IMG/VR virus record: IMGVR_UViG_3300023710_000192
Reading direction: 5' to 3' (one strand)
Length of the DNA stretch: 55,556 nucleotides
DNA from: a virus
Lineage: Duplodnaviria > Heunggongvirae > Uroviricota > Caudoviricetes
Made by a program: the position numbers and the translations under genes. The notes below the pieces were generated by a model. The model was given only the letters and a program-made list of their open reading frames with translations, was not told where the DNA came from and ran no database searches. Every line of letters begins with the position of its first letter. Positions within the stretch are counted from its first letter, which is position 1. Below, piece after piece: positions 1 through 29,185 of this stretch.

Positions 1-1038
1 TTAACCAACATACTGTAGATAAGCATTTTTTGTATCAACCTCTGCAACATCTACATATATTCGAGTAGTTTCCAATCGCTCATGCCCTAAAATTTTAGAT
101 ACTTTTTCTATTGGCATTCCTTTTTTTACACAATCAGTTGCAAATTTAGAACGCAATTTATGAGGAAAGATGTTTTCTACGCCACACTCAGATCCTAAAT
201 ATTTTAATCTTGATTCTATTGCGTGAATGCTAAATCTTCTTGGTTGTAAAGTATGTCTATCGTTTAAAAGAGTAACAAATAAAGCCGGGTTATTATCGGT
301 TCGAGTAGAAAGATATTTCTCTAATCTAACTTTAGTCCTACCATCAAAATATACAGTTCGATATTTGTTTCCTTTGCCGTGTACGATAATTGACTTATTA
401 ACAAAATTAACGTCATCTATATTAAGTTCAGTCATTTCACCGACACGAATACCAGACGCATAAAATAAATCAACTAATGCTATATCCCTATCAGTTTTAC
501 AGCACATTCGTATTCGTTCTAATTCTTCGTCTGTAATTATTTGTTTGACTTTCTTTTCACTTTTAATTTTTTGGAGTCCTTCTGCTGGATTTTCGCAGAT
601 ATACTTTTTTATACGACACCACGAAAAGAATGACGACATTATTCTTCTCATTCCATCAAGAGTGCTATTTGATACGTTTCTATTAGTTTTATAATCCCAT
701 AAATATTGTTGTAAATCATCCGTAACTATATCTTGTATGGGTTTATTGATTTCTAATAATACAGGACGTAATATATCCTCATAACGTTGGGTAGTTTTCG
801 TTGATTTACCGTCTAATTCTTTTGAAAGAGTAAAATTCTTTAAAATTTGCATATTAATATTGTCATTGTCAACAATAGTTAACTCATTATCAATTGATTT
901 GAGTTCTATATTAAACCTCATTAATTTCATATATAATACATCTTTTAGCTTAACAAGTTGCTCCCCTGATAATACAGTTGACATACTATTTACAACATCT
1001 AATACTATTTCTTCGTTTAAATTTCTACCAATAATCAT
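1..1038 (-). CDS. Tyrosine recombinase (XerD-like); candidate tail-fibre invertase
   Basis: Complete catalytic set: GIRVGE (R), GKGNKYR (K), HKLR (HxxR), LGHE (H), TRIY (Y). Start moved from 1083 to ATG 1038 behind SD GGAGG. Abuts the invertible cassette. Confidence 0.9.
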   Translation of the reverse strand: MIIGRNLNEEIVLDVVNSMSTVLSGEQLVKLKDVLYMKLMRFNIELKSIDNELTIVDNDNINMQILKNFTLSKELDGKSTKTTQRYEDILRPVLLEINKPIQDIVTDDLQQYLWDYKTNRNVSNSTLDGMRRIMSSFFSWCRIKKYICENPAEGLQKIKSEKKVKQIITDEELERIRMCCKTDRDIALVDLFYASGIRVGEMTELNIDDVNFVNKSIIVHGKGNKYRTVYFDGRTKVRLEKYLSTRTDNNPALFVTLLNDRHTLQPRRFSIHAIESRLKYLGSECGVENIFPHKLRSKFATDCVKKGMPIEKVSKILGHERLETTRIYVDVAEVDTKNAYLQYVG

Positions 1039-1170
1039 ATAAAATCCTCCATATAATTTATTTTTATACTCACAGAATAACATATATAATAATTACATTT
1101 TTACAAATTATATGAAGGATTTTAATTTATTTTTGGTGTTTTCTACGTATGTATTTAATTACAAGACTTA

Positions 1171-1182
1171 ACTAAACAGTAA
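1171..1182 (+). repeat. Inverted repeat, left copy (ACTAAACAGTAA); putative crossover site
   Basis: Exact reverse complement of 2006-2017. Encodes L-N-S in the same frame as the copy in the fibre gene and sits at the very start of the open cassette frame. Confidence 0.75.
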
Positions 1183-1507
1183 GATACCTACTTCCGAAAC
1201 TGAGTATAAGGTTACTGATGGATTAGTTATAAAAAAGTTTGGGAAAATTATAAATGTAGAATGTAACGGAGCTATTGTGTCAAATATTCTCGCACAAACA
1301 CTTCCAGCATCATATAGACCAGTTAGACAGTTATGGATTCCGGCATTTATGATTACTGGTGGAAACGATTACTGTGCTGGTTTGTCAATAAATACAGACG
1401 GAACATTCACGGCAATTTGGTATCCACCCGGAGGCCCGCATATAAATATGAATTCGACATACAATAGTCATATATTATTCTTAAATACCACGTATATAGT
1501 TGATTAA
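1172..1507 (+). other. Silent alternative tail-fibre C-terminal cassette (111 codons, no start or RBS)
   Basis: The frame is open from 1172, right after TAA at 1169-1171: LNSKIPTSETEYKVTDGLVIKKFGKIINVECNGAIVSNILAQTLPASYRP...YIVD. The LPxxYRP motif is typical of fibre-tip domains. Its stop overlaps the fibre stop on the palindrome TTAA at 1504-1507. Confidence 0.8.
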
Positions 1508-3282
1508 ATTTTAGCTAAGATTACGGATACTCCTTGCCCAGCACAATATGTTACACCATCTGCTGTTGCAATAAGTGAAACCGTATTATCATTATTAAGG
1601 TATATTGAACAGAACGCACCGCCAATTACATCTGTATATACATATTGTCCATAGTTTCTTACGATACGAACGGCAACAACAAATGTATTACCAGAAGTAA
1701 AACCAGTTGGGAGAGCTGTTTTGAGTTCCCCGCTTACAGTTGACGGCATTGGGCCTATTTCAAGCGTAGTAAAAGCTAATCCACTTAAACCAGCAACTTT
1801 TTCATTTAAGAAATCAAATTCTCTACATATATCAGTCCATCTACTATTATTAGATGTGATAGTTTCTCCGGTATTAATACTGGTTGTTGTTTTATATAAT
1901 TGAGATGTTGATGTTTCCCAAAAATAATTATATTGATTATAACTATTTTGAGAAGGGGAGTTTAATTTTTCGTTTCTTCCTGAGACAATAGAATGATTAA
2001 TCTTATTACTGTTTAGTGCAGAGTATGCTCTTGCAACACTACCATTAGTTGCAAATGTTGTATTGTCTGGGCAACTGCCAGCATCATAACTTGTGCCGGT
2101 TGTAGTATTTGTGTCTTTGTAGTATGGAATACCACTTATAATAGGGCAAGCAGTATATCCCGAACTTGATGTTACAGTTGAACCATTCTTTATAAGTCCA
2201 GTTGTTCCATTTGCTCCAACTAAAGAATATGTTGTATCTGTAAATAGTGCATCACTAGGCACAGATTTTCCAATTGTATATGAAATTGCAGTTGGAACGC
2301 CATTAGCTGTAAAATAAACTGGTTTATTAGTATCACCAATTTTAGACGTATTTGTTAATTTTTCTGCACTTGTTGCCGCACCACCAGCAGTTGAAGCACC
2401 TGCATATTTTGTGTCACCCGCAAGGGCGGTTGTTGATGTAGTACCTATAGTAAGGTTTGAAGTACCGGCTCCAATATTAGCCCTAGCATTAGATTGTTCT
2501 GTGGTTGTTAATCCCTGTGATGCTACCGTCGATACCGCTTTAAAGTTCCCTACATTACCCAAACCAACATCGGTTTTAGTCGTTCCATGTGGATTTGTAC
2601 CAGAACCCGGATGGGTATAAACCGTTGTTTCAGTTCCGTTTATTTTAATATTACCATTAGTTGAACTAGCTTCTGTTTTAGTTGCATCTGTTCTTGCGTG
2701 AGTAGATTGACTATGATCGTATGCGGTCTTACCTCTATCTCCTCTATAAGCGGTACTTGACGTTTCACCTAATGCGAGAGATGGACTTATTTCTACATAA
2801 GCAGTACCACTCCATCTATAAGTTAAATTAGTAGAAGTGTCTACATATATCTTACCTGTTTCGCCAGTAGTAGGAAAAGATGATTTACTTGAATATTCAA
2901 GTACGTCATCTACGTATGATGGTAATTGTGAGCTTGGAACTTTACCATTTGCATCTAGTTCAGCAAGTCCGCTATTAGCACCTTTTAAATTTGTACTGAG
3001 TTTTCCGTCAAGAGCAGTTTGAGTTGCAGTTGAAATTGGTTTATTAGCATCTGAAGTATTATCTACGTTTCCAAGCCCGACTTGTGACTTTGTTACATTA
3101 TGAGGATTGGACGTATTAGAAGTATGACTAGATATTGTCTGGTCAACAGCATTCATTTTTGTTTGTAAATCTGTCCCATTTGTCATTTCGACAGATTCAG
3201 AAGATGTAGCATATGAAATCGGATCTGACCAACCATCTGATGTTTTAACTCTTCGTTCTGCCTTTTGAAACGTTGTTGGCAT
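1504..3282 (-). CDS. Tail fibre / receptor-binding protein (592 aa) with exchangeable C-terminus
   Basis: Fibre repeats HNVTKSQVGLGNVDNTSD and TKTDVGLGNV, plus the LDANGKVPSSQLPSYVDDV motif. Thr/Ser/Gly-rich. SD AGGAG. Confidence 0.85.
   Translation of the reverse strand: MPTTFQKAERRVKTSDGWSDPISYATSSESVEMTNGTDLQTKMNAVDQTISSHTSNTSNPHNVTKSQVGLGNVDNTSDANKPISTATQTALDGKLSTNLKGANSGLAELDANGKVPSSQLPSYVDDVLEYSSKSSFPTTGETGKIYVDTSTNLTYRWSGTAYVEISPSLALGETSSTAYRGDRGKTAYDHSQSTHARTDATKTEASSTNGNIKINGTETTVYTHPGSGTNPHGTTKTDVGLGNVGNFKAVSTVASQGLTTTEQSNARANIGAGTSNLTIGTTSTTALAGDTKYAGASTAGGAATSAEKLTNTSKIGDTNKPVYFTANGVPTAISYTIGKSVPSDALFTDTTYSLVGANGTTGLIKNGSTVTSSSGYTACPIISGIPYYKDTNTTTGTSYDAGSCPDNTTFATNGSVARAYSALNSNKINHSIVSGRNEKLNSPSQNSYNQYNYFWETSTSQLYKTTTSINTGETITSNNSRWTDICREFDFLNEKVAGLSGLAFTTLEIGPMPSTVSGELKTALPTGFTSGNTFVVAVRIVRNYGQYVYTDVIGGAFCSIYLNNDNTVSLIATADGVTYCAGQGVSVILAKI
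2006..2017 (-). repeat. Inverted repeat, right copy (ACTAAACAGTAA on minus strand), inside the fibre gene at L423
   Basis: Minus strand reads gcACTAAACAGTAAtaag = A-L-N-S-N-K. Confidence 0.75.
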
Positions 3283-3299
3283 AATCTCAACTCCTTTCT

Positions 3300-3470
3300 T
3301 TATTCTGTTGTTATTATTTTAGTCCAAAAATCACCTGCTACTGCAGTGGAAGGAGCAGTAGTAGACATAGTTTCTTGAACAATACCAGTTGTTTTTGTGT
3401 CTATATAATCTTTGATATTTTCATCGTAAACACCTAAACCGTGTTCATCGAGATATTGTTTAGCTGCCAT
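3300..3470 (-). CDS. Small protein (56 aa), paralogous N-terminus to the two upstream genes; absent from the ORF track
   Basis: Translated by hand: MAAKQYLDEHGLGVYDENIKDYIDTKTTGIVQETMSTTAPSTAVAGDFWTKIITTE. SD AAGGAGG. Confidence 0.8.
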   Translation of the reverse strand: MAAKQYLDEHGLGVYDENIKDYIDTKTTGIVQETMSTTAPSTAVAGDFWTKIITTE

Positions 3471-3544
3471 ATTAATTTCCTCCTTTTGTTTATTTTCTTG
3501 TCAAGATGATTAATCTATGCGCTATCTTGACAAACTAATAAACT

Positions 3545-3574
3545 AAAAAAGGAGAGGTCGTTAAACCTCTCCTT
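3545..3574 (-). terminator. Rho-independent terminator
   Basis: AAGGAGAGG/CCTCTCCTT stem followed by a T run on the minus strand, just after the 445-aa gene. Confidence 0.75.
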
Positions 3575-3588
3575 GTGATTAGTAAATA

Positions 3589-4926
3589 TTATGAGAAGAG
3601 TGCATTAATTGAAGCGTCTGGGATAGCTTCAGTTGCAGCATCTGCATAAGCCTTTGCTCCGTAGATTGTTGAAGCAGAAGCAGCGTCTGAACTCGTACCA
3701 ATAACTTCTGACTTAGCAGTTGCGGCAGCACCTGAAGCATCATAGTCTGTTGAAGCAGTAAATGCTGCACTACCAAGACCATGTACTGATACATCTGTAC
3801 CATTAACAGCTACAGTACCGTCAGTAGAACCTTCTGCAACTGTTACGTTAACTGCTTTGTTAGCATCTGGTGTAAGTGCAGAACCATTAACCTTAACAGT
3901 TTCAATAGTATTTACATTTGCTCCATCATCAACATTTAATGCTGTAAGCAACTCAGACTTTGTAATATTATCTTCGAGATCTACACCAGCGATAGTAGTA
4001 GTCTTCTTAACGAATGATGTCTCATCGCCAACTTCTCTCCAACCTACAGTAGAGTTAACATAGATATACTCTTTTGCGTTGTCTGACATTACAACAGTGT
4101 CACCAGCCTCTGGACTAGTTATAACTCTAGCAATAGCCTCGGCATCTGTCTCACCTGTCTGACGAGTGATAACACCAACAAAGTGCATTGCACCTTCAAG
4201 GCCAGCGATTTCGCTTGCAACGAATGTAGCAACCTGAGCTGCACTTACAAGACCATCATCGGTAGATGACTCTGTAATTGCAGAAGTAGCAACGTCTGCA
4301 TTTGCAGCAGTTCCTAATGTGTCAAGAGTAGTATCAATCTCATCAATTGCATCCTGAACATTAGTAGCAGTAAAAGCAGAAGAAGTATTGTCGTATGATA
4401 CATCTGTAGCACTTCCTGTTGTTGCAAGTTTAGCAAGAGTAATATCAGAATCAGAGTTATTATCAACAACACCATCAGCCTCTGTAATACCAGCCTTAAG
4501 TGTTACTACACCGCTTGATACACTTGCGATAGTAGCTGAACCATCAAGCGCCTCAATGGCTTCTGTAATCTGCTCTGAAACCGAACCGCCTGCACCAATC
4601 TGACTATAGATGTCATCAAGTGCATCCTCTACGGATACTGCTGGATCCTGACCAGATGCTGCCTTATACTGTACATCTTCTGAAAGACCTGTTGCAGCCA
4701 CTTTAGCAAGTACAACGTCAGTGCCTGCTCCTTTTGCGATCACACCGTCTTCTTCTTTCATTGAACCAGTAAGTGTGATAATATCATTTGTCTTTGAGGC
4801 AAGAGTTACATCAGATGATGTGTCAAGTGTTCCTACCTTTGTGTTAATCTGGCTTCCAACCCATTCCTTAATTTTTCCATCATATGTTGTTAAGCCCGTG
4901 AGATTTAAATATTGTTTTGCTGCCAT
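3589..4926 (-). CDS. Acidic structural/fibre-like protein (445 aa) with internal repeat
   Basis: Two copies of a TLxxxxxExDGV...xxLAKxAxTGxxxDVxY repeat. Lies in the tail distal module. SD AGGAG. Confidence 0.6.
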   Translation of the reverse strand: MAAKQYLNLTGLTTYDGKIKEWVGSQINTKVGTLDTSSDVTLASKTNDIITLTGSMKEEDGVIAKGAGTDVVLAKVAATGLSEDVQYKAASGQDPAVSVEDALDDIYSQIGAGGSVSEQITEAIEALDGSATIASVSSGVVTLKAGITEADGVVDNNSDSDITLAKLATTGSATDVSYDNTSSAFTATNVQDAIDEIDTTLDTLGTAANADVATSAITESSTDDGLVSAAQVATFVASEIAGLEGAMHFVGVITRQTGETDAEAIARVITSPEAGDTVVMSDNAKEYIYVNSTVGWREVGDETSFVKKTTTIAGVDLEDNITKSELLTALNVDDGANVNTIETVKVNGSALTPDANKAVNVTVAEGSTDGTVAVNGTDVSVHGLGSAAFTASTDYDASGAAATAKSEVIGTSSDAASASTIYGAKAYADAATEAIPDASINALFS

Positions 4927-4989
4927 AATTATGACTCCTTTCTAAATAAAAATTTTTATTTTTTCATGCAGATATTTATTCTGCAAATT

Positions 4990-6021
4990 TTAACTAAATA
5001 AATTTTCAATATCTTCATCTGCAACTGAATCAATATCTGTTTCTTGTAATGCAGAATCTGCCAAATCTAAACTATTTTGAACCGCTTGTACAAGTTTAGC
5101 CTTAGTTACTGTGCCATCAACAAGTTTAGAACCATTTACCGCTACAATTGATGCTGAAATTACATTATTATTATCAATTACAAGTTGTATTTCCGTGGCT
5201 CCTTGAGCAGCAGTGTAAACATCAACCAAACTATTAGCTGGAATATAAATATGATCACTTGACGAATTAGCCAGAATTAAATCAATATATTTATCGCCAA
5301 CTTTTGCTCCAGCATATGGAACATCTGGAGTTGTAACTGTCTCAACGGTTCCGCTTTCCAAAAACATATCTTTTGGAATATCAATATCTGCCAATTTTTC
5401 AGCCGGAACTGGACTCTGTGCAGAGCCATTATCTCCCTGATATATTCCATAACGTTTACTATATACATCACCACTACCACCAGCAGTTTCGGTAATGTAT
5501 ACTGTCTTATCAGCAGAACTAATGGCAGTAATATCACCTTTTGTAGCAATTTCATCGTCAGCAGTAAAAGCTGAAGAATCAGCATTACTCGTATAATAGA
5601 AACCATCAAGCGTCATATTGATACGAGCGCCAACATACTTATCGCCAACTTTCTTTACCGTGTAAATCTGACCAGTTATACCGTTTTCACCACCATCGTT
5701 TACACCAGCAAAACTCATAGTGCCATCATTATGTTCAAACTTTGCACCGCCACCATCTGCCTCATTAAACACAAGTGCCTTGCCATTAGGCCCATTAACT
5801 ATCTTCTCAACATAATTGCTTAAATCTTGCTGAGGAATGTCAATTGAATATGCTGGTTGTGTAGAACTAGTAGGATTTTCTTCACGATAGAATTTCAAAA
5901 CAGTACCAGAAATACTAACTGTTTTTAACGCTTTGGCATCTTCTTCTGACATTACATTTTTTAAGAGACCATCATACAACGCAAGATTGTCTAGGTCTAT
6001 AAAATGTTTTGTTTCTGCCAT
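4990..6021 (-). CDS. Structural/fibre-like protein (343 aa)
   Basis: N-terminal HFIDLDNLALYD and C-terminal DEDIENLFS motifs shared with neighbours. SD AGGAGG. Confidence 0.55.
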   Translation of the reverse strand: MAETKHFIDLDNLALYDGLLKNVMSEEDAKALKTVSISGTVLKFYREENPTSSTQPAYSIDIPQQDLSNYVEKIVNGPNGKALVFNEADGGGAKFEHNDGTMSFAGVNDGGENGITGQIYTVKKVGDKYVGARINMTLDGFYYTSNADSSAFTADDEIATKGDITAISSADKTVYITETAGGSGDVYSKRYGIYQGDNGSAQSPVPAEKLADIDIPKDMFLESGTVETVTTPDVPYAGAKVGDKYIDLILANSSSDHIYIPANSLVDVYTAAQGATEIQLVIDNNNVISASIVAVNGSKLVDGTVTKAKLVQAVQNSLDLADSALQETDIDSVADEDIENLFS

Positions 6022-6055
6022 TTTCTTTCCTCCTTTTTAATAAATTTAAAAAAGA

Positions 6056-6547
6056 TTACCCATTGGTAATCTCTGTTTCAAAAAGTTTCTCAATATTCTC
6101 ATCGTCTTCAGGTTGAACATTTTCATCAATTGCATTTTCTACATCTTGCTGAGTAGCAATAGTGTCAACGACAACAGGTTTATCCGGTTCGAGACTATAT
6201 ACAGTAGACTCATCAGCAGTAATTCTTCGTATCTTTTTTATACCATCAATTGTCTGCACAATTGCAAGTATATAAGAAGAAGTAACAAACGTTGTTGAAT
6301 CTTCTGTGATTTGATGTTCGCCTTTAACCTGATAAATTCCGTCTTCCAAAGAACTAAGAATGACCTTTTCATCGAGTGTTCCTACTAATGTTGGTATACC
6401 GACAGTTTCCAATTCATTCTCTTTATTAACAAAGCCATACTGTGAAACATCTTGCATAAACACATAAGCAGGGTACTTAATTTTTCCAGATTCAATGGCG
6501 GCTATGGCATTCGCCTTTTTACCATGTGCAAAAGTAGGATTCTTCAT
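6056..6547 (-). CDS. Hypothetical tail-region protein (163 aa)
   Basis: ORF with SD AGGAG. Ends DENIEKLF, like its neighbours. Confidence 0.6.
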   Translation of the reverse strand: MKNPTFAHGKKANAIAAIESGKIKYPAYVFMQDVSQYGFVNKENELETVGIPTLVGTLDEKVILSSLEDGIYQVKGEHQITEDSTTFVTSSYILAIVQTIDGIKKIRRITADESTVYSLEPDKPVVVDTIATQQDVENAIDENVQPEDDENIEKLFETEITNG

Positions 6548-6568
6548 ACATCTTCTCCTTTCTTTGCA

Positions 6569-7336
6569 TTATAGTTCGGTAAACTCATAATTACTTTCGT
6601 TATCAGGAGTTTGCTCTAATTCATTATTTCCTTCTGATTCATTATTATTTTCAGAGGTATTTGATTCTTCAGAATTATTAGATTCCCCGGAACCGTTTCC
6701 CTCTTCATTGCTAGGAGTATAATCCAAGTCCACTATTCCATCATGATTATCGTCATCTAAATCCATATCTGTTGGAACAATTATTTCAACACCTTCTCCA
6801 AGTAGCGTATCTTCATGAACAATATATAATTTTTCAGTGTCTTCATCTATCTTTAAGTCGGTAGGGATTGTGTTCTCAAGATCAGAAATATCCATGCTAT
6901 TTCTTTTGATTATTTCTTCCATTGCTTGCATCTTTTCGTAGTCTGCAAAATCAACATATTCATTGGGTTTACTAATAGTGATATATGTAGAATTTGTACG
7001 TAACATATTTAATTCGTCATCGTCATCTGGATTTGGATTAACTAAAACCAACCACACTTTTACATTTCCGGCCACAGAAACGAAATTCCGGTCAATATCG
7101 AACTCGCAACGCAAAAAATCTTTGTAAAGCTCGTCCTCGACGGCTAGAGTGCGGCTATGTGAATTTTGGTTTGGATCGACATACCAAAGGGTAACAATGA
7201 ACTCTGAAAGCCCCATTCCTTCGTACTCTTTTGGCAATAAAAATTGTATTTTATCAACGAAATTTTCTTTCTGCATGATGGTCTTTTTAACAGTAGTGAT
7301 TAAGTTCTTATTTTCATCCATCATTATTGTGTACAT
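6569..7336 (-). CDS. Baseplate-associated hypothetical protein (255 aa) with acidic low-complexity tail
   Basis: SD AGGAGGAG. N-terminus looks like a beta-sandwich (BppU-like by eye); C-terminus is E/N/S-rich. Confidence 0.5.
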   Translation of the reverse strand: MYTIMMDENKNLITTVKKTIMQKENFVDKIQFLLPKEYEGMGLSEFIVTLWYVDPNQNSHSRTLAVEDELYKDFLRCEFDIDRNFVSVAGNVKVWLVLVNPNPDDDDELNMLRTNSTYITISKPNEYVDFADYEKMQAMEEIIKRNSMDISDLENTIPTDLKIDEDTEKLYIVHEDTLLGEGVEIIVPTDMDLDDDNHDGIVDLDYTPSNEEGNGSGESNNSEESNTSENNNESEGNNELEQTPDNESNYEFTEL

Positions 7337-7359
7337 GAAATTTCTCCTCCTTTCATTAA

Positions 7360-7911
7360 TTAATAAAATCTTGTCCAGAAATCATTTTGGTCTGCACTTC
7401 CGGGCGGGTTAGTAGTGGTTGTTACCCACTCATTTGCAAGTTCTCTTATTTGCTCCTGTGTTTCTAAATACTTCTGGTCAATATCTTCAAATTCATCAGA
7501 TTGTCTCTCGTAGTCTTGTTGCACAGGATTTTTATAAACTCGCATATAAAAGTTAGTGGTGTTTTTAATATCACCATCTTTTTCTAATTCAAAATTACAT
7601 TCATTTCTTCCATACATCATTGTCATTGTATTCTTAATAGGAAATGTAATTGTATTACCAGAAACACTTCCTCCAATAGCTGAAACTAATGTTGTATAGA
7701 AAGTCTTAGACGCTCGACTCATTTTTAGAGTTATTTTGTTAGCAGGATAATCAGATAAATTAAATGGTTCTCCTTGGTTATAAATATGAACATTTATAAC
7801 ACTAGGAAAACCATTGCTTTCATCGTCATCATATTGATTAGAATAAACTACTATAAGTCTTGAGTCTACGAGATCTAAGTTTATATCTTGTTCAGAAGGT
7901 GTATCGTACAT
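7360..7911 (-). CDS. BppU N-terminal-like baseplate upper protein
   Basis: Pattern VHIYNQGEPFNL...ITFPI..TMT...G...CNFEL......TTNF...V..NPV resembles BppU_N. Confidence 0.6.
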   Translation of the reverse strand: MYDTPSEQDINLDLVDSRLIVVYSNQYDDDESNGFPSVINVHIYNQGEPFNLSDYPANKITLKMSRASKTFYTTLVSAIGGSVSGNTITFPIKNTMTMMYGRNECNFELEKDGDIKNTTNFYMRVYKNPVQQDYERQSDEFEDIDQKYLETQEQIRELANEWVTTTTNPPGSADQNDFWTRFY

Positions 7912-7927
7912 GAGTACCTCCTTTCTG

Positions 7928-8368
7928 TTATTCTGTTATTACTTCTACCTCTGTTTCTTCAGGTTTTTCAATCATAAACTTAACACTCTGTAAGTCTTTA
8001 CCAGAGATTTCGTAATTAACCAAATCATTATAATTAATAGTTGAAACTGAAATCTCGTTAGTAATATTATTTAATTCCGTCAATTCTTTCTGAAAATCCT
8101 TTATATATTCGTCTTTAACCTGTCTATCAGTATTGCCATTTTCTAAAGTAATTTCAAAAGAATGCTCGTCGTCAGAATATTTATCTCTGATCTTCTTATC
8201 TGCTTCATCAATACGAACCGCAATATCATAAAGTTTATGGCGGTTTTCATCTATTACCCAAAGTATTGATAGCGGATAAGGCTTATCCGAATTTAAAATT
8301 CCGTCCTGTCGTTGTAATAAACCTAAAATTGCTCGTATTTCGTAGTTTGTTAATTTAATATTTTTCAT
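7928..8368 (-). CDS. Hypothetical protein (146 aa) downstream of the tail spike
   Basis: ORF with SD. Helical acidic protein of the kind often found after S74-bearing spikes. Confidence 0.55.
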   Translation of the reverse strand: MKNIKLTNYEIRAILGLLQRQDGILNSDKPYPLSILWVIDENRHKLYDIAVRIDEADKKIRDKYSDDEHSFEITLENGNTDRQVKDEYIKDFQKELTELNNITNEISVSTINYNDLVNYEISGKDLQSVKFMIEKPEETEVEVITE

Positions 8369-8397
8369 AATCCTTTTTTCTCCTTTTTATTAAAATA

Positions 8398-8425
8398 AAA
8401 TAGGAGAGTAGTTATTTACTCTCCT
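8398..8425 (-). terminator. Terminator hairpin, near-identical to 40981-41007
   Basis: GGAGAGTA/TACTCTCC stem followed by an A/T-rich tail. Overlaps the spike stop codon. Confidence 0.6.
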
Positions 8426-11400
8426 CAAGTTCTTTAATACGTTGTTCAAGTTTTTCAATTATCTCTTGCTGTTCTTGAATAGCTTTAAGTGCATATGTTG
8501 TCATTACACCGGTATCTATATTTTTTAGATATTTATATTTACTATTTTCTGGCTGATCAACTTTGAATACTGCTTCAGGGATATAGTTTTCCACTTGGTC
8601 TGCAACAACACCAAGATTAACATGCCCACCATTTTTCCAATCAAACTCAACAAAATCTATGTTATTAATTTTTTTAATTGCATTTTGCTTTGTTGCTAAA
8701 ATATTTTTCTTTAATCTTATATCTGATTTCCATACATTTACACCAACTGCACTAGATTCACTAAAATTTGCAATGTTAAAATGAATATAATTAAAGCTAG
8801 TATTGTTAGCATCCGCATTCCATAATCCTTTATCTACAAATGTTATACCTGTAACAGGCGTATTACCAAATCCGTAAATAAACGGGCCTTGCCCATCAAG
8901 AGTTATTGTACCAGTAGTTATTGTATTTCCGATTACACTTAACGTATATCCAGCGTAACCAGCTCCACCTACACCTAAACAACCATTAGTATATATTCCT
9001 TGATTGGTATTGTTAATAATATAATCATTAGAAAGATATAAACTACCGGAGATTCTTAAGTCTTCGCTAATATATCCGCTACCTGTTACACTTAACGTAT
9101 ATCCAGCGTAACCAGCTCCGCCAACGCCTAAACAACCGTTTGTAAAAACTCCATTTGTATAATCTGATATATAATAACTATCATTAAAATATAAATTATG
9201 ACTATTTAAATACGTGTTTGCACCTAAATAGTTAAATGCAGAACCATTTTTTAAAAAAGTACCCAAATAAAAATTATGATCATTGCTTGTGTTATCAAAA
9301 GAAAGCACAACTCCTCTTAAATAAGAATCGGTTAAACAATTACGAATAGATACTCCAGAATAGGTTTCATTTTTATATACAATATTAGCGACAGAAATTT
9401 TAGACGTTGTAACATTATTATTATTTGTTATATTTAATAAATTTCCTTTAATATTCCCACTAAAATCACCGTCTGTAGCATATATAGTACCATATATTTC
9501 CGCATTACTAGCCTTAAGTAATCCACTTGAATCAACGGTAAAACCAGTGGTACTATCACTTGGAGTGTCACCTACGGTTATGCTTCCACTAAACGTAGCG
9601 TTACCATTAGAATCAGCACCTATTGTAACGACACCGCTTGTATTAGTTATCTTAAATATATCATCATTGGATTTACTTAATGTTTCTTGATATACCCAAC
9701 CATAAGAAGTAGCAGATACCCTTGAATTTCTATATATTTTTCCATTAGAAATATCTAATGCATATGTATTACTACCTTGCTGGTTAGGATCATATGTATC
9801 AGCAGGATCTCCATAACACTTCAATACAGTTCTACTCGCATATGCACCCAAATCCCACATATTATGCTGCGGATCAATAGTAACTGAACGTCCGTCATTT
9901 GGATTCTTGATATATAAATATCCACCACCAATCATAGGAGATATAACATAATCACTACCTATTTCTGTTACGGGATTACCAGTTAAAGCACCTTGAACTT
10001 GTTTCTGAAATGTTGTGAAATTAGTATTATAAGTTGAGAGTGTTGTATTAATGTTGGATAAATCAGTAGTTAAATTTGTTACGTCGCTTTCTTGTAATTT
10101 ATGCCCATCTTTCCATGTAATTGTTCCACCATCTAACACAATACCATCCCCAGTAATTTCAACACTATTAGAATTATTAATAATGCTTAAATTCTGACCG
10201 ACAATAAATTTACCAATAACATAATCAGCATTGATACCATATACCCAATTGTTATTATATTTAAACTTACCGATAGCAGTATTAACACTATCGAAAGCGT
10301 CTGTTGTAAAATACACACCATTAGCAGTATAAATAGCCTGTTCATCGGCATAAACACCCTCGTCTAACATACTTCTACCAAGTAATCCCTTTTTGTCAAA
10401 AGTCATTACTTGTTCAGGAGAGTTTTTAATAAGGTATAATGCCGAATCCAAACCTTCTTGCTGCAATGAGTCAAATGTATTCATCGCTTTAACACCTTGC
10501 TGTGATTGTTTAACAGTGGAAGTATAAGAAGTCGCCATTGATTTGCTTTGACTTATTACGCTCTTTAAGTCGCTTACAACTCCACTAACATCAACAACTT
10601 GGTCACTAAATGTTACGTCTATATTATCTGGGGATTGATAATTAAATCGTATTTCCACCAAACGCAATTTATATATTTTATCATCAACACGGCAACGCAC
10701 ATAATTAAATAATGCAAACTTGTCATGCAATGTCTCTAACTCATTAAGAGTAAATATATTATTTAGACTACCATTAATCTTATATTGAATATTACAAGCC
10801 TTTGATAATTCTCGATATGCAACATTATACAATTCTTTACATGTATATAATATTTCACTATCAGTTAATCCATCGGATATGTAATTAGGATTATTATAAC
10901 TATCTTCACGAATATATGAATTATATTGTAACCAATATTCTTCGCCTAAAGTTTCTCCATAATTAGTAATTAACCAAGTATGAATCTGCCAAGATTTTTG
11001 ATAGTTTGCCAACTTACCCTCGTCACCTTCGTAAGAGTCTTCTAATCCCTTAAGATTAGTCACAGTTTGCAATAATTCATCATAAACTTTAGAAGCTACA
11101 TTAGATCGCTCTACCCATTTATCTCTTGAAATTAATGCAGAATCACTTACTTCGGAGGCGCTTGAGTCAATACGTAAATTACTATACCAATCATCTAATG
11201 AACTACGACAAGCTTCAAATGAATCCCTAAATGATTTGAGTGAAGTTAGATTATATTGTCTCAAATAGTTTTCGAGTTGTGCTGAAGTTTCAAATCTAGT
11301 TATATCCAACTCGGCAATGTCATTTTTTGTAATCGCAATTTTCATTTTCTGTTCGCAATAAGCAATGTTTTCACTATCCAACGTTTGCATAACAGGAACA

Positions 11401-28153: not shown

Positions 28154-29185
28154 CTATATTTCTGATAAAGATTTTTGTTCTACTTGTTTAATCCCGTTTT
28201 CATCAAAATATTTCCCAATGTTTTCATCCGCAGATATATCAGTATAAAGATTCACCATATCTGCCGACTCCCAATTTACAATATCTTGAATAACATTGGT
28301 TGGGATATTGTTTTTAACTAACATGGTCGTGAAATAATGACGTAAACTATGCCAGTAAAAATCTTTACCAAGAAATCTACTAAAACTATCTTTCCAACCA
28401 TCCATAGTTTCGGTACTCATTTGTTTTGTTGGATCGTTTTTATCAGGGAATAACCATTCACTTTCAATACCTTCTTCTTTTCTTTGTTTCATCCATAGTT
28501 CAAGATAAGGATCAAATGGTTTCTTCAATACATATAAATAGATTTTTTTACCTTGACTTCCACGACCTTTTGTAACAACCTTTTCGTTTGTTTTATAAAG
28601 AGAACCAAATATAACATTCTCATCATTAAAATATTCAACTTTAAATCTAGGAATTTCAGCTTTTCGTCTACCAGAATTGCAACATAAACTTACAACTGCA
28701 GCTTGCTTATATTTTTCTTTTTCTACTAAGTGATCGAGTAAAGATTGTATTTCCTCATCGGAGAAAATAGTTTTTTCTCTAACCGGTTGATTAACTGGAG
28801 ACTCTATTTTTTTAATAACGCTTTTATAACCACTGTATTCTTCCTCTTCATCAAGAATATTTTCTATATAATTTGAAAGAGAAGATATAACTGATTTTAC
28901 ACGTCTTGTTCTTTTAGGACTCCAACCCCACGTATCAATTGCATGACTTTGAAATCTGGCAAACTCACGTTTTGTTATTTCAGTAAATCTTTTATTATTA
29001 TTATTTTCTAAATTATATACAAAGAATATTCTTAAATCCGCTTTATATTGTTCTATTGTTCTTGGAGATCTATCTATTGATTTTAGATAGTCCAAAAAAT
29101 CATTCATTAGTTCCTTATTTTCAGGAAGAATCTGTGATATGGACTCTTCGTTAGTTATATTATTATAGACAGTAGTTCTACCCAT
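28154..29185 (-). CDS. Tyrosine recombinase in the tail region (SPbeta YomM-like position)
   Basis: SGRRKAE (R), TKGRG (K), HSLRH (HxxR), NW.S..MV.LY (W/Y). Confidence 0.85.
   Translation of the reverse strand: MGRTTVYNNITNEESISQILPENKELMNDFLDYLKSIDRSPRTIEQYKADLRIFFVYNLENNNNKRFTEITKREFARFQSHAIDTWGWSPKRTRRVKSVISSLSNYIENILDEEEEYSGYKSVIKKIESPVNQPVREKTIFSDEEIQSLLDHLVEKEKYKQAAVVSLCCNSGRRKAEIPRFKVEYFNDENVIFGSLYKTNEKVVTKGRGSQGKKIYLYVLKKPFDPYLELWMKQRKEEGIESEWLFPDKNDPTKQMSTETMDGWKDSFSRFLGKDFYWHSLRHYFTTMLVKNNIPTNVIQDIVNWESADMVNLYTDISADENIGKYFDENGIKQVEQKSLSEI

Follow-up and report, generated by a model that had tools for sequence, protein, structure and literature searches.

The DNA analysed here is a stretch of 55,556 nucleotides (the window) from the tailed-phage record IMGVR_UViG_3300023710_000192 (Caudoviricetes), and the system in question lies at its beginning, where a tyrosine recombinase gene, a start-less open frame and a tail-fibre gene adjoin one another. 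We conclude, with a probability of roughly 0.87, that this locus is a shufflon working by multiple inversions, through which a single tail fibre of the phage exchanges its receptor-binding tip. The features that we regard as established are the crossover sites, the open frames of the cassettes, an intact enzyme, a flipped junction in a related strain, a layout conserved among relatives and the fold of a receptor-binding head in one of the tips. An earlier inspection of the letters of the window (the sequence-only reading) had proposed an inversion switch of the fibre tip driven by a tyrosine recombinase; that proposal is supported, and the switch proves to be three times larger than was seen there.

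Crossover sites and tip cassettes

Exact copies of the 12-mer ACTAAACAGTAA are found only twice in the window, at sites A and B, one reverse-complemented relative to the other (Table 1). The codon phase of the two copies is the same: the codons CTA, AAC and AGT, preceded by A and followed by AA, are read as Leu-Asn-Ser (L-N-S) both in the fibre gene and in the plus-strand frame. The latter opens right behind a TAA at 1169-1171 and runs for 111 codons (1172-1504) to a TAA at 1505-1507, a stop that overlaps the fibre stop (1504-1506) within the TTAA at 1504-1507. A swap computed at the site would join the fibre body up to Leu (423 residues) to cassette 1 from Asn-Ser onwards (110 residues), giving a protein of 533 aa. 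The sequence-only reading had described the locus in the same terms (a 12-mer inside the fibre gene with an inverted, in-phase copy at the opening of a start-less 111-codon frame, two tips lying tail to tail with shared TTAA, and a 592-aa fibre turning into one of 533 aa upon inversion), and the coordinates and the L-N-S reading bear it out on each of these points. A 12-bp inverted repeat alone is unremarkable, the first 4 kb containing 82 inverted pairs that are 10 nt or longer.

The first letters of the window belong to the recombinase stop codon. A look-up of the recombinase protein led to L081, a Logan contig of 11,758 nt, which is the exact reverse complement of window positions 1-8962 with 2,796 nt of extra DNA. 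The sequence-only reading had advised a search for more cassettes beyond position 1, and the extra DNA indeed holds four additional start-less frames (cassettes 2-5) and four additional sites, with each frame opening at a copy of AAACAGTAA, the 9-mer core of the site, read as Asn-Ser. The six sites, lettered here A to F along L081, alternate strictly between strands. The locus therefore consists of a constant 5' gene part and several start-less 3' cassettes (one fibre body and six tips, five of them silent), the tips forming three tail-to-tail pairs, with shared TTAA at the stops in pairs 1 and 3 and the recombinase gene placed between pair 1 and pair 2.

This pattern is far from random. The core AAACAGTAA is present six times in the 3.3-kb locus, as opposed to once in the other 55 kb, and every copy in the locus is in N-S phase; when the locus was shuffled 300 times, the copy number of every 9-mer stayed at four or below. 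Read in the N-S phase, each of the six frames stays open over 80-169 codons, and among the silent ones five out of five are open in the phase set by their site. Because stop codons would make up about 7.5% of codons in random sequence of the locus composition, a frame would be expected to stay open over 80 codons in about 2 of 1000 cases. Similarity among the six tips was sought and none was found (all z scores below 1). An eighth AACAGTAA, at L081 position 9817, is attributed to chance: the 9-mer core begins with an A that is missing there, and its N-S phase accommodates no stop-to-stop frame of at least 40 codons.

Table 1. Features of the fibre locus; positions refer to the window unless marked L081, and strands are those of the window or, for the row of six sites, of L081.
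Feature	Position	Strand	Remarks
Shufflon recombinase, 345 aa	1-1038 (stop at 1-3); L081 7925-8962	-	Pfam Phage_integrase (2.5e-29) and SAM_4
Recombinase leader hairpin	1027-1137	-	33-nt arms, 85% complementary; pairs with Shine-Dalgarno and start region
Crossover site B	1171-1182	+	12-mer; 9-mer core AAACAGTAA at 1174-1182
Silent cassette 1	1172-1507	+	start-less 111-codon tip and stop; predicted receptor-binding head fold
Tail-fibre gene	1504-3282	-	592 aa
Tip 0, now joined to fibre body	1504-2016	-	L-N-S and 167 further residues, stop included
Crossover site A	2006-2017	-	inside fibre gene
Constant tail-fibre body, residues 1-422	2017-3282	-	PHROG tail-fibre families
Six AAACAGTAA sites (A to F)	L081 6949, 7781, 8985, 9562, 9647, 10212	+, -, +, -, +, -	strict strand alternation
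Cassette 2	L081 extra DNA	fibre strand	92 aa, start-less
Cassette 3	L081 extra DNA	opposite strand	99 aa, start-less
Cassette 4	L081 extra DNA	fibre strand	110 aa, start-less
Cassette 5	L081 extra DNA	opposite strand	80 aa, start-less
Lysogeny integrase, 391 aa	L081 10384-11559		just beyond shufflon; SAM_3 and Phage_integrase; next to att site

In an exhaustive profile search, cassette 1 corresponded exactly to the C-terminal end of two full-length proteins, P0242 (457 aa, with fibre-type repeat motifs; 45% identity, E 4e-23) and P0251 (561 aa). Its AlphaFold (AF2) model, built on a small alignment, has a mean predicted local distance difference test (pLDDT) score of 93, and the best matches of the model in the PDB are the heads of the receptor-binding proteins (RBPs) of the lactococcal phages TP901-1 and p2, together with Listeria phage PSA. 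We therefore confidently predict that cassette 1 is a receptor-binding head of the lactococcal type. For tip 0, no homologues were detectable, the single-sequence fold (pLDDT 30) was unusable and the atlas matches provided weak leads only. From the head fold and by analogy with known systems, the tips would be expected to change adsorption specificity and host range.

The mechanism that we propose is as follows. The expressed gene would be the constant fibre body ending in Leu-Asn-Ser, the codons of which carry the crossover site with its core, and the five other copies of the site would each head a tip cassette having neither promoter nor start codon. The recombinase would exchange strands at any two inverted sites and thereby flip the intervening DNA. 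A single flip of site A with B, D or F would place cassette 1, 3 or 5, respectively, behind the fibre body; cassettes 2 and 4 would be reached by two flips; and some flips would reverse the recombinase gene itself. The outcome would be a set of fibres that end in six unrelated tips and range from about 503 to 592 aa.

Recombinase, flipped junctions and related phages

The sequence-only reading had placed an intact tyrosine recombinase directly after the cassettes, an assignment that both the Pfam match and the alignment to XerA (4a8e) uphold, all catalytic positions (R, K, HxxR, H and Y) being present in the latter. The protein matches the XerA-type NCBIfam model at 215 bits, is closest to recombinases of the XerA/XerC/XerD type and is without an arm-binding domain. 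Its Pfam matches are Phage_integrase and SAM_4 only, which sets it apart from the serine recombinases, and it is distinct from the longer integrase that the phage also encodes. We infer that this recombinase performs the flips. Queries with it against viral_contigs and genome_contigs gave no match.

Translation most likely starts at the ATG at 1036-1038, which a GGAGG precedes by 7 nt. The leader hairpin (RNA fold -30.3 kcal/mol, z -5.2) has similar counterparts in the relatives L086 and L087 and a weak one in L090, and it is probably a brake on translation of the recombinase that would hold the level of the enzyme low. In the 130-nt leader, a simple scan of the gene strand detected no promoter.

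Two relatives of the recombinase that are about 41% identical to it (P0083 and P0096) carry a Type I HsdS domain (Methylase_S, PF01420) as a fusion, which hints at kinship of the shufflon recombinase with the enzymes that shuffle restriction specificity (hsdS) genes. The window encodes a second tyrosine-recombinase-like protein (28154-29185, minus strand; 343 aa; PHROG integrase 9e-38; weak match to the XerA-type NCBIfam model) among its structural genes, around which neither inverted repeats nor opposite-strand cassettes were found.

Evidence of a flip comes from run X6, a cattle-gut metagenome from a separate study, in which a 361-nt contig aligns to window positions 2018-2274 and then, on the opposite strand, from 1171. 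The joint consists of 12 shared letters, and the gene strand reads fibre body, L-N-S, cassette 1. The inverted junction that the sequence-only reading had predicted is thus present in an independent metagenome run, exactly at the 12-mer. The contig differs from the window by about 9% and hence originates in a related strain. Tip 0 and the point where the two tips meet tail to tail are spanned by other X6 contigs, so that this segment appears to be present, and flipped, in that run.

A second read set (X7-X10) held no inversion joint, its contigs just diverging at the two sites. One X7 contig is identical to the window over 986-1182 and stops at the last base of site B, and another starts at 2005, the edge of site A, with a loose end that shows unlike sequence below 2004; this divergence at sites A and B suggests that different tips occupy the same boundaries in X7. 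The loose ends in X7-X10 matched none of the cassettes of this phage. Likewise, the fibres P0123 and P0130 of relatives have ...ARAYSALNSN in common and diverge from there.

Around recombinases that are 52-78% identical to that of this phage, the context is the same, namely a long fibre gene, a short frame on the opposite strand, the recombinase and further short frames. Sites on alternating strands accompany them: two in L087 (CTAAACAGTAAT), four in L086, four in L088/L089, eight in L090-L092 (AACACCAATT), three in L082 (ACAGCAA) and three in L181 (AACACTAAT). In L087, the two inverted sites and one cassette precede an endolysin gene. Depending on the phage, the middle codon of the site is AGT, AGC, ACT or ACC (Ser or Thr), and all copies within one phage agree. 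Such uniformity is in keeping with a crossover region in which partner sites have to match, and a conserved linker peptide alone would be insufficient to account for it because synonymous codons would vary freely; on this comparison, the middle codon probably marks the place of strand exchange.

In L179 and L180, the recombinases of which are 78% identical to that of this phage, a homologue of cassette 5 (92.5% amino-acid identity) lies in the slot adjoining the recombinase, which is the slot of cassette 1 here. This change of slot fits either shuffling or cassette exchange and is proof of neither. A scan of viral_contigs with the fibre gave matches limited to the shared N-terminal repeats. 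One fibre, P0125 (619 aa, encoded on a 128-kb contig), matches that of this phage without a difference up to about residue 397 (window 2092-2600) and departs from it wholly thereafter; the swap point is upstream of the shufflon site, which indicates that fibres diversify by another route as well. In two cultured Clostridia phages, Terrisporobacter phage TPELB_ph1 (L097) and Clostridium phage phiCp-D (L098), an 'integrase' that is 28-33% identical to the shufflon recombinase is encoded between the last tail gene, which it follows directly, and the holin gene, and TPELB_ph1 has a separate second gene annotated as integrase. Cassette sites were not found in either phage in a quick search.

Judged by its genes and its integration site, the phage itself is a temperate siphophage of a Lachnospiraceae bacterium of the herbivore gut, with a prophage at tRNA-Thr. 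Next to the fibre gene lie further tail genes (BppU_N, a Peptidase_S74 fibre and the tape measure). Past the integrase, L093 runs into phage genes and L094 and L095 run into bacterial rpsR, ssb and rpsF; these free and integrated forms part inside a tRNA-Thr(CGU) gene (L094 16061-16133) and have an att core of about 43 bp in common. The SSB of the bacterial flank is closest to those of Lachnospiraceae and uncultured Clostridiales genomes. The sequence-only reading had spoken of a 'Clostridia-type phage', with which the prophage form in a bacterial contig and this SSB agree. A crAss-like identity was considered as well: DNA matches to cr* phages cover the fibre repeats only, and it was rejected because other features point elsewhere, namely the tape measure and BppU_N, the integrase, the att site in the tRNA gene and the Lachnospiraceae flank.

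Alternative explanations

Several observations weigh against an active shufflon. Mixed orientations within one population or sample were looked for and none were seen. The five assemblies that have exactly this fibre, which probably stem from related samples, all share one arrangement; Logan contigs at depths of 51 and 119 span the locus unbroken; and no permutation between samples was found in the relatives L090-L092 and L088/L089. The X6 junction comes from a strain that is about 91% identical and hence attests to a flip that separates strains rather than to switching as it happens, and support for a folded tip is confined to cassette 1. Moreover, sites C and E have the same orientation as site A (direct repeats), which requires the enzyme to favour inversion over deletion. 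Rci, the recombinase of the R64 shufflon, is known to favour inversion over deletion, and by analogy we infer that the enzyme of this phage avoids deletion between direct sites. The single arrangement and the unbroken contigs indicate that switching may be rare, or off in the lysogen.

The same uniformity among assemblies, depth of unbroken coverage and lack of permutation in two related phages are what one would expect of a fossil shufflon, in which leftover cassettes and sites persist in an arrangement that is now fixed. We nevertheless consider such decay improbable for this phage, given that all six cores are identical, that the five silent frames have all stayed open despite the frequency of stop codons in random sequence, that the catalytic residues of the recombinase have been kept and that a close relative carries the segment flipped (X6); consensus assemblies, for their part, hide rare variants. 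Still less probable is ordinary recombination between phages, with the repeats being conserved linker codons and the recombinase serving dimer resolution or a second integration system. Fibre modules do move in other ways, as P0125 illustrates by departing at a position outside the sites, and the related 'integrases' behind the tail genes of the cultured Clostridia phages stand without sites in a quick look. However, 12 bp are too short for homologous recombination, linker codons leave start-less cassettes on alternating strands unexplained, the nucleotide core is uniform within a phage despite the synonymous choices on offer (AGT/AGC, ACT/ACC), and the phage already encodes another integrase, which has an att site of its own at tRNA-Thr. 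As for a chance inverted repeat beside an unrelated recombinase, single 12-bp inverted repeats are common in AT-rich DNA, but the statistics of the 9-mer pattern already refute this idea, and the six copies, their alternation and frame, the open cassettes, the layout in relatives and the X6 junction leave it virtually no credibility.

A bolder version of the shufflon reading holds that the locus belongs to a separate and widespread lineage of Firmicutes-phage shufflons, kin to the hsdS recombinases, in which some configurations turn the enzyme gene off the late tail transcript and so lock the tip, making the system self-limiting. The position of the recombinase gene inside invertible DNA, the lack of a clear promoter in its leader and the hidden ribosome-binding site would make such tip-locking configurations possible; we offer this version tentatively and think it rather unlikely as a whole.

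Comparison with known systems

The multiple-inversion shufflon that we favour is a well-supported additional example and not a new principle, as phage fibre shufflons of this kind have already been described. The sequence-only reading, which cited Gin, Cin and Rci only, implied a novelty that was too high, RBP shufflons driven by phage tyrosine recombinases having been published (PMC6109161; PMC8778435; PMC13596623). Our literature searches found no published report of such a shufflon in Firmicutes phages. What the locus adds to the host-range switches so far published for phages of Actinobacteria and Bacteroidota is a clear six-tip example from a Lachnospiraceae phage, in a layout that recurs, with 2 to 8 sites, across related gut and rumen phages. 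The device probably alters which cells the phage attaches to. Annotation pipelines label such enzymes 'integrase' and overlook start-less cassettes, and as a consequence the predicted host range and the fibre diversity of gut phages are undercounted.

The report on the Rin shufflon of prophages of Bifidobacterium breve and Bifidobacterium longum presented Rin as the first tyrosine invertase encoded by a phage (Mavrich et al. 2018; PMC6109161), and the Rin shufflon is also found in prophages of Eggerthella lenta (PMC8778435). Its likeness to the locus described here extends to a phage-encoded armless tyrosine recombinase separate from the integrase (PMC6109161), to one constant N-terminal RBP gene with several variable C-terminal cassettes, to a short asymmetric site that heads each cassette (11 bp in Rin, 9-12 bp here) and to mutually dissimilar cassettes that resemble the TP901-1 RBP head (here judged from the model of cassette 1). 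The preference for inversion over deletion was raised as an open question for Rin (PMC6109161). The two systems differ in host (Actinobacteria as opposed to Lachnospiraceae), in the sequence of the site and in the position of the recombinase, which flanks the array in Rin whereas here it lies between cassette pairs and would be flipped by some inversions; the convergent cassette pairs are likewise a feature of the present locus. The likeness to Rin, as that to Rci below, is one of layout and features. No Bifidobacterium phage was among the tblastn matches to the recombinase at E 1e-20 or better.

A shufflon in a BV01-like phage of Phocaeicola vulgatus has three invertible segments that yield six fibre isoforms (PMC13596623, a 2026 preprint). 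In common with the present locus, it has directional motif sites (10-bp there), an adjacent recombinase and an overlap with the distal end of a tail-fibre gene (PMC13596623). In contrast, its host belongs to the Bacteroidota, its site sequence is another one, the recombinase of the present locus lies inside the array, and reads counted for all configurations demonstrated activity there, whereas here only one flipped junction was seen, in a relative.

Among the systems outside tyrosine-recombinase phage shufflons, the R64/IncI plasmids (Rci, sfx, pilV) provide a tyrosine recombinase, multiple inversions and convergent alternative C-terminal exons of an adhesin-type gene, together with a short core, poorly conserved flanks and the need for inversion to be favoured over deletion. 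There, the target is an adhesin of the conjugative pilus, encoded on a plasmid, and rci occupies one end of the array; here, neither a pilV target nor a recombinase at the array end is found, the target being a phage fibre and the recombinase lying between pairs. Finally, Min of p15B (six crossover sites), Gin of Mu and Cin of P1 also swap the C-termini of phage tail fibres by site-specific inversion, but they are serine invertases, whereas the enzyme described here is a tyrosine recombinase.

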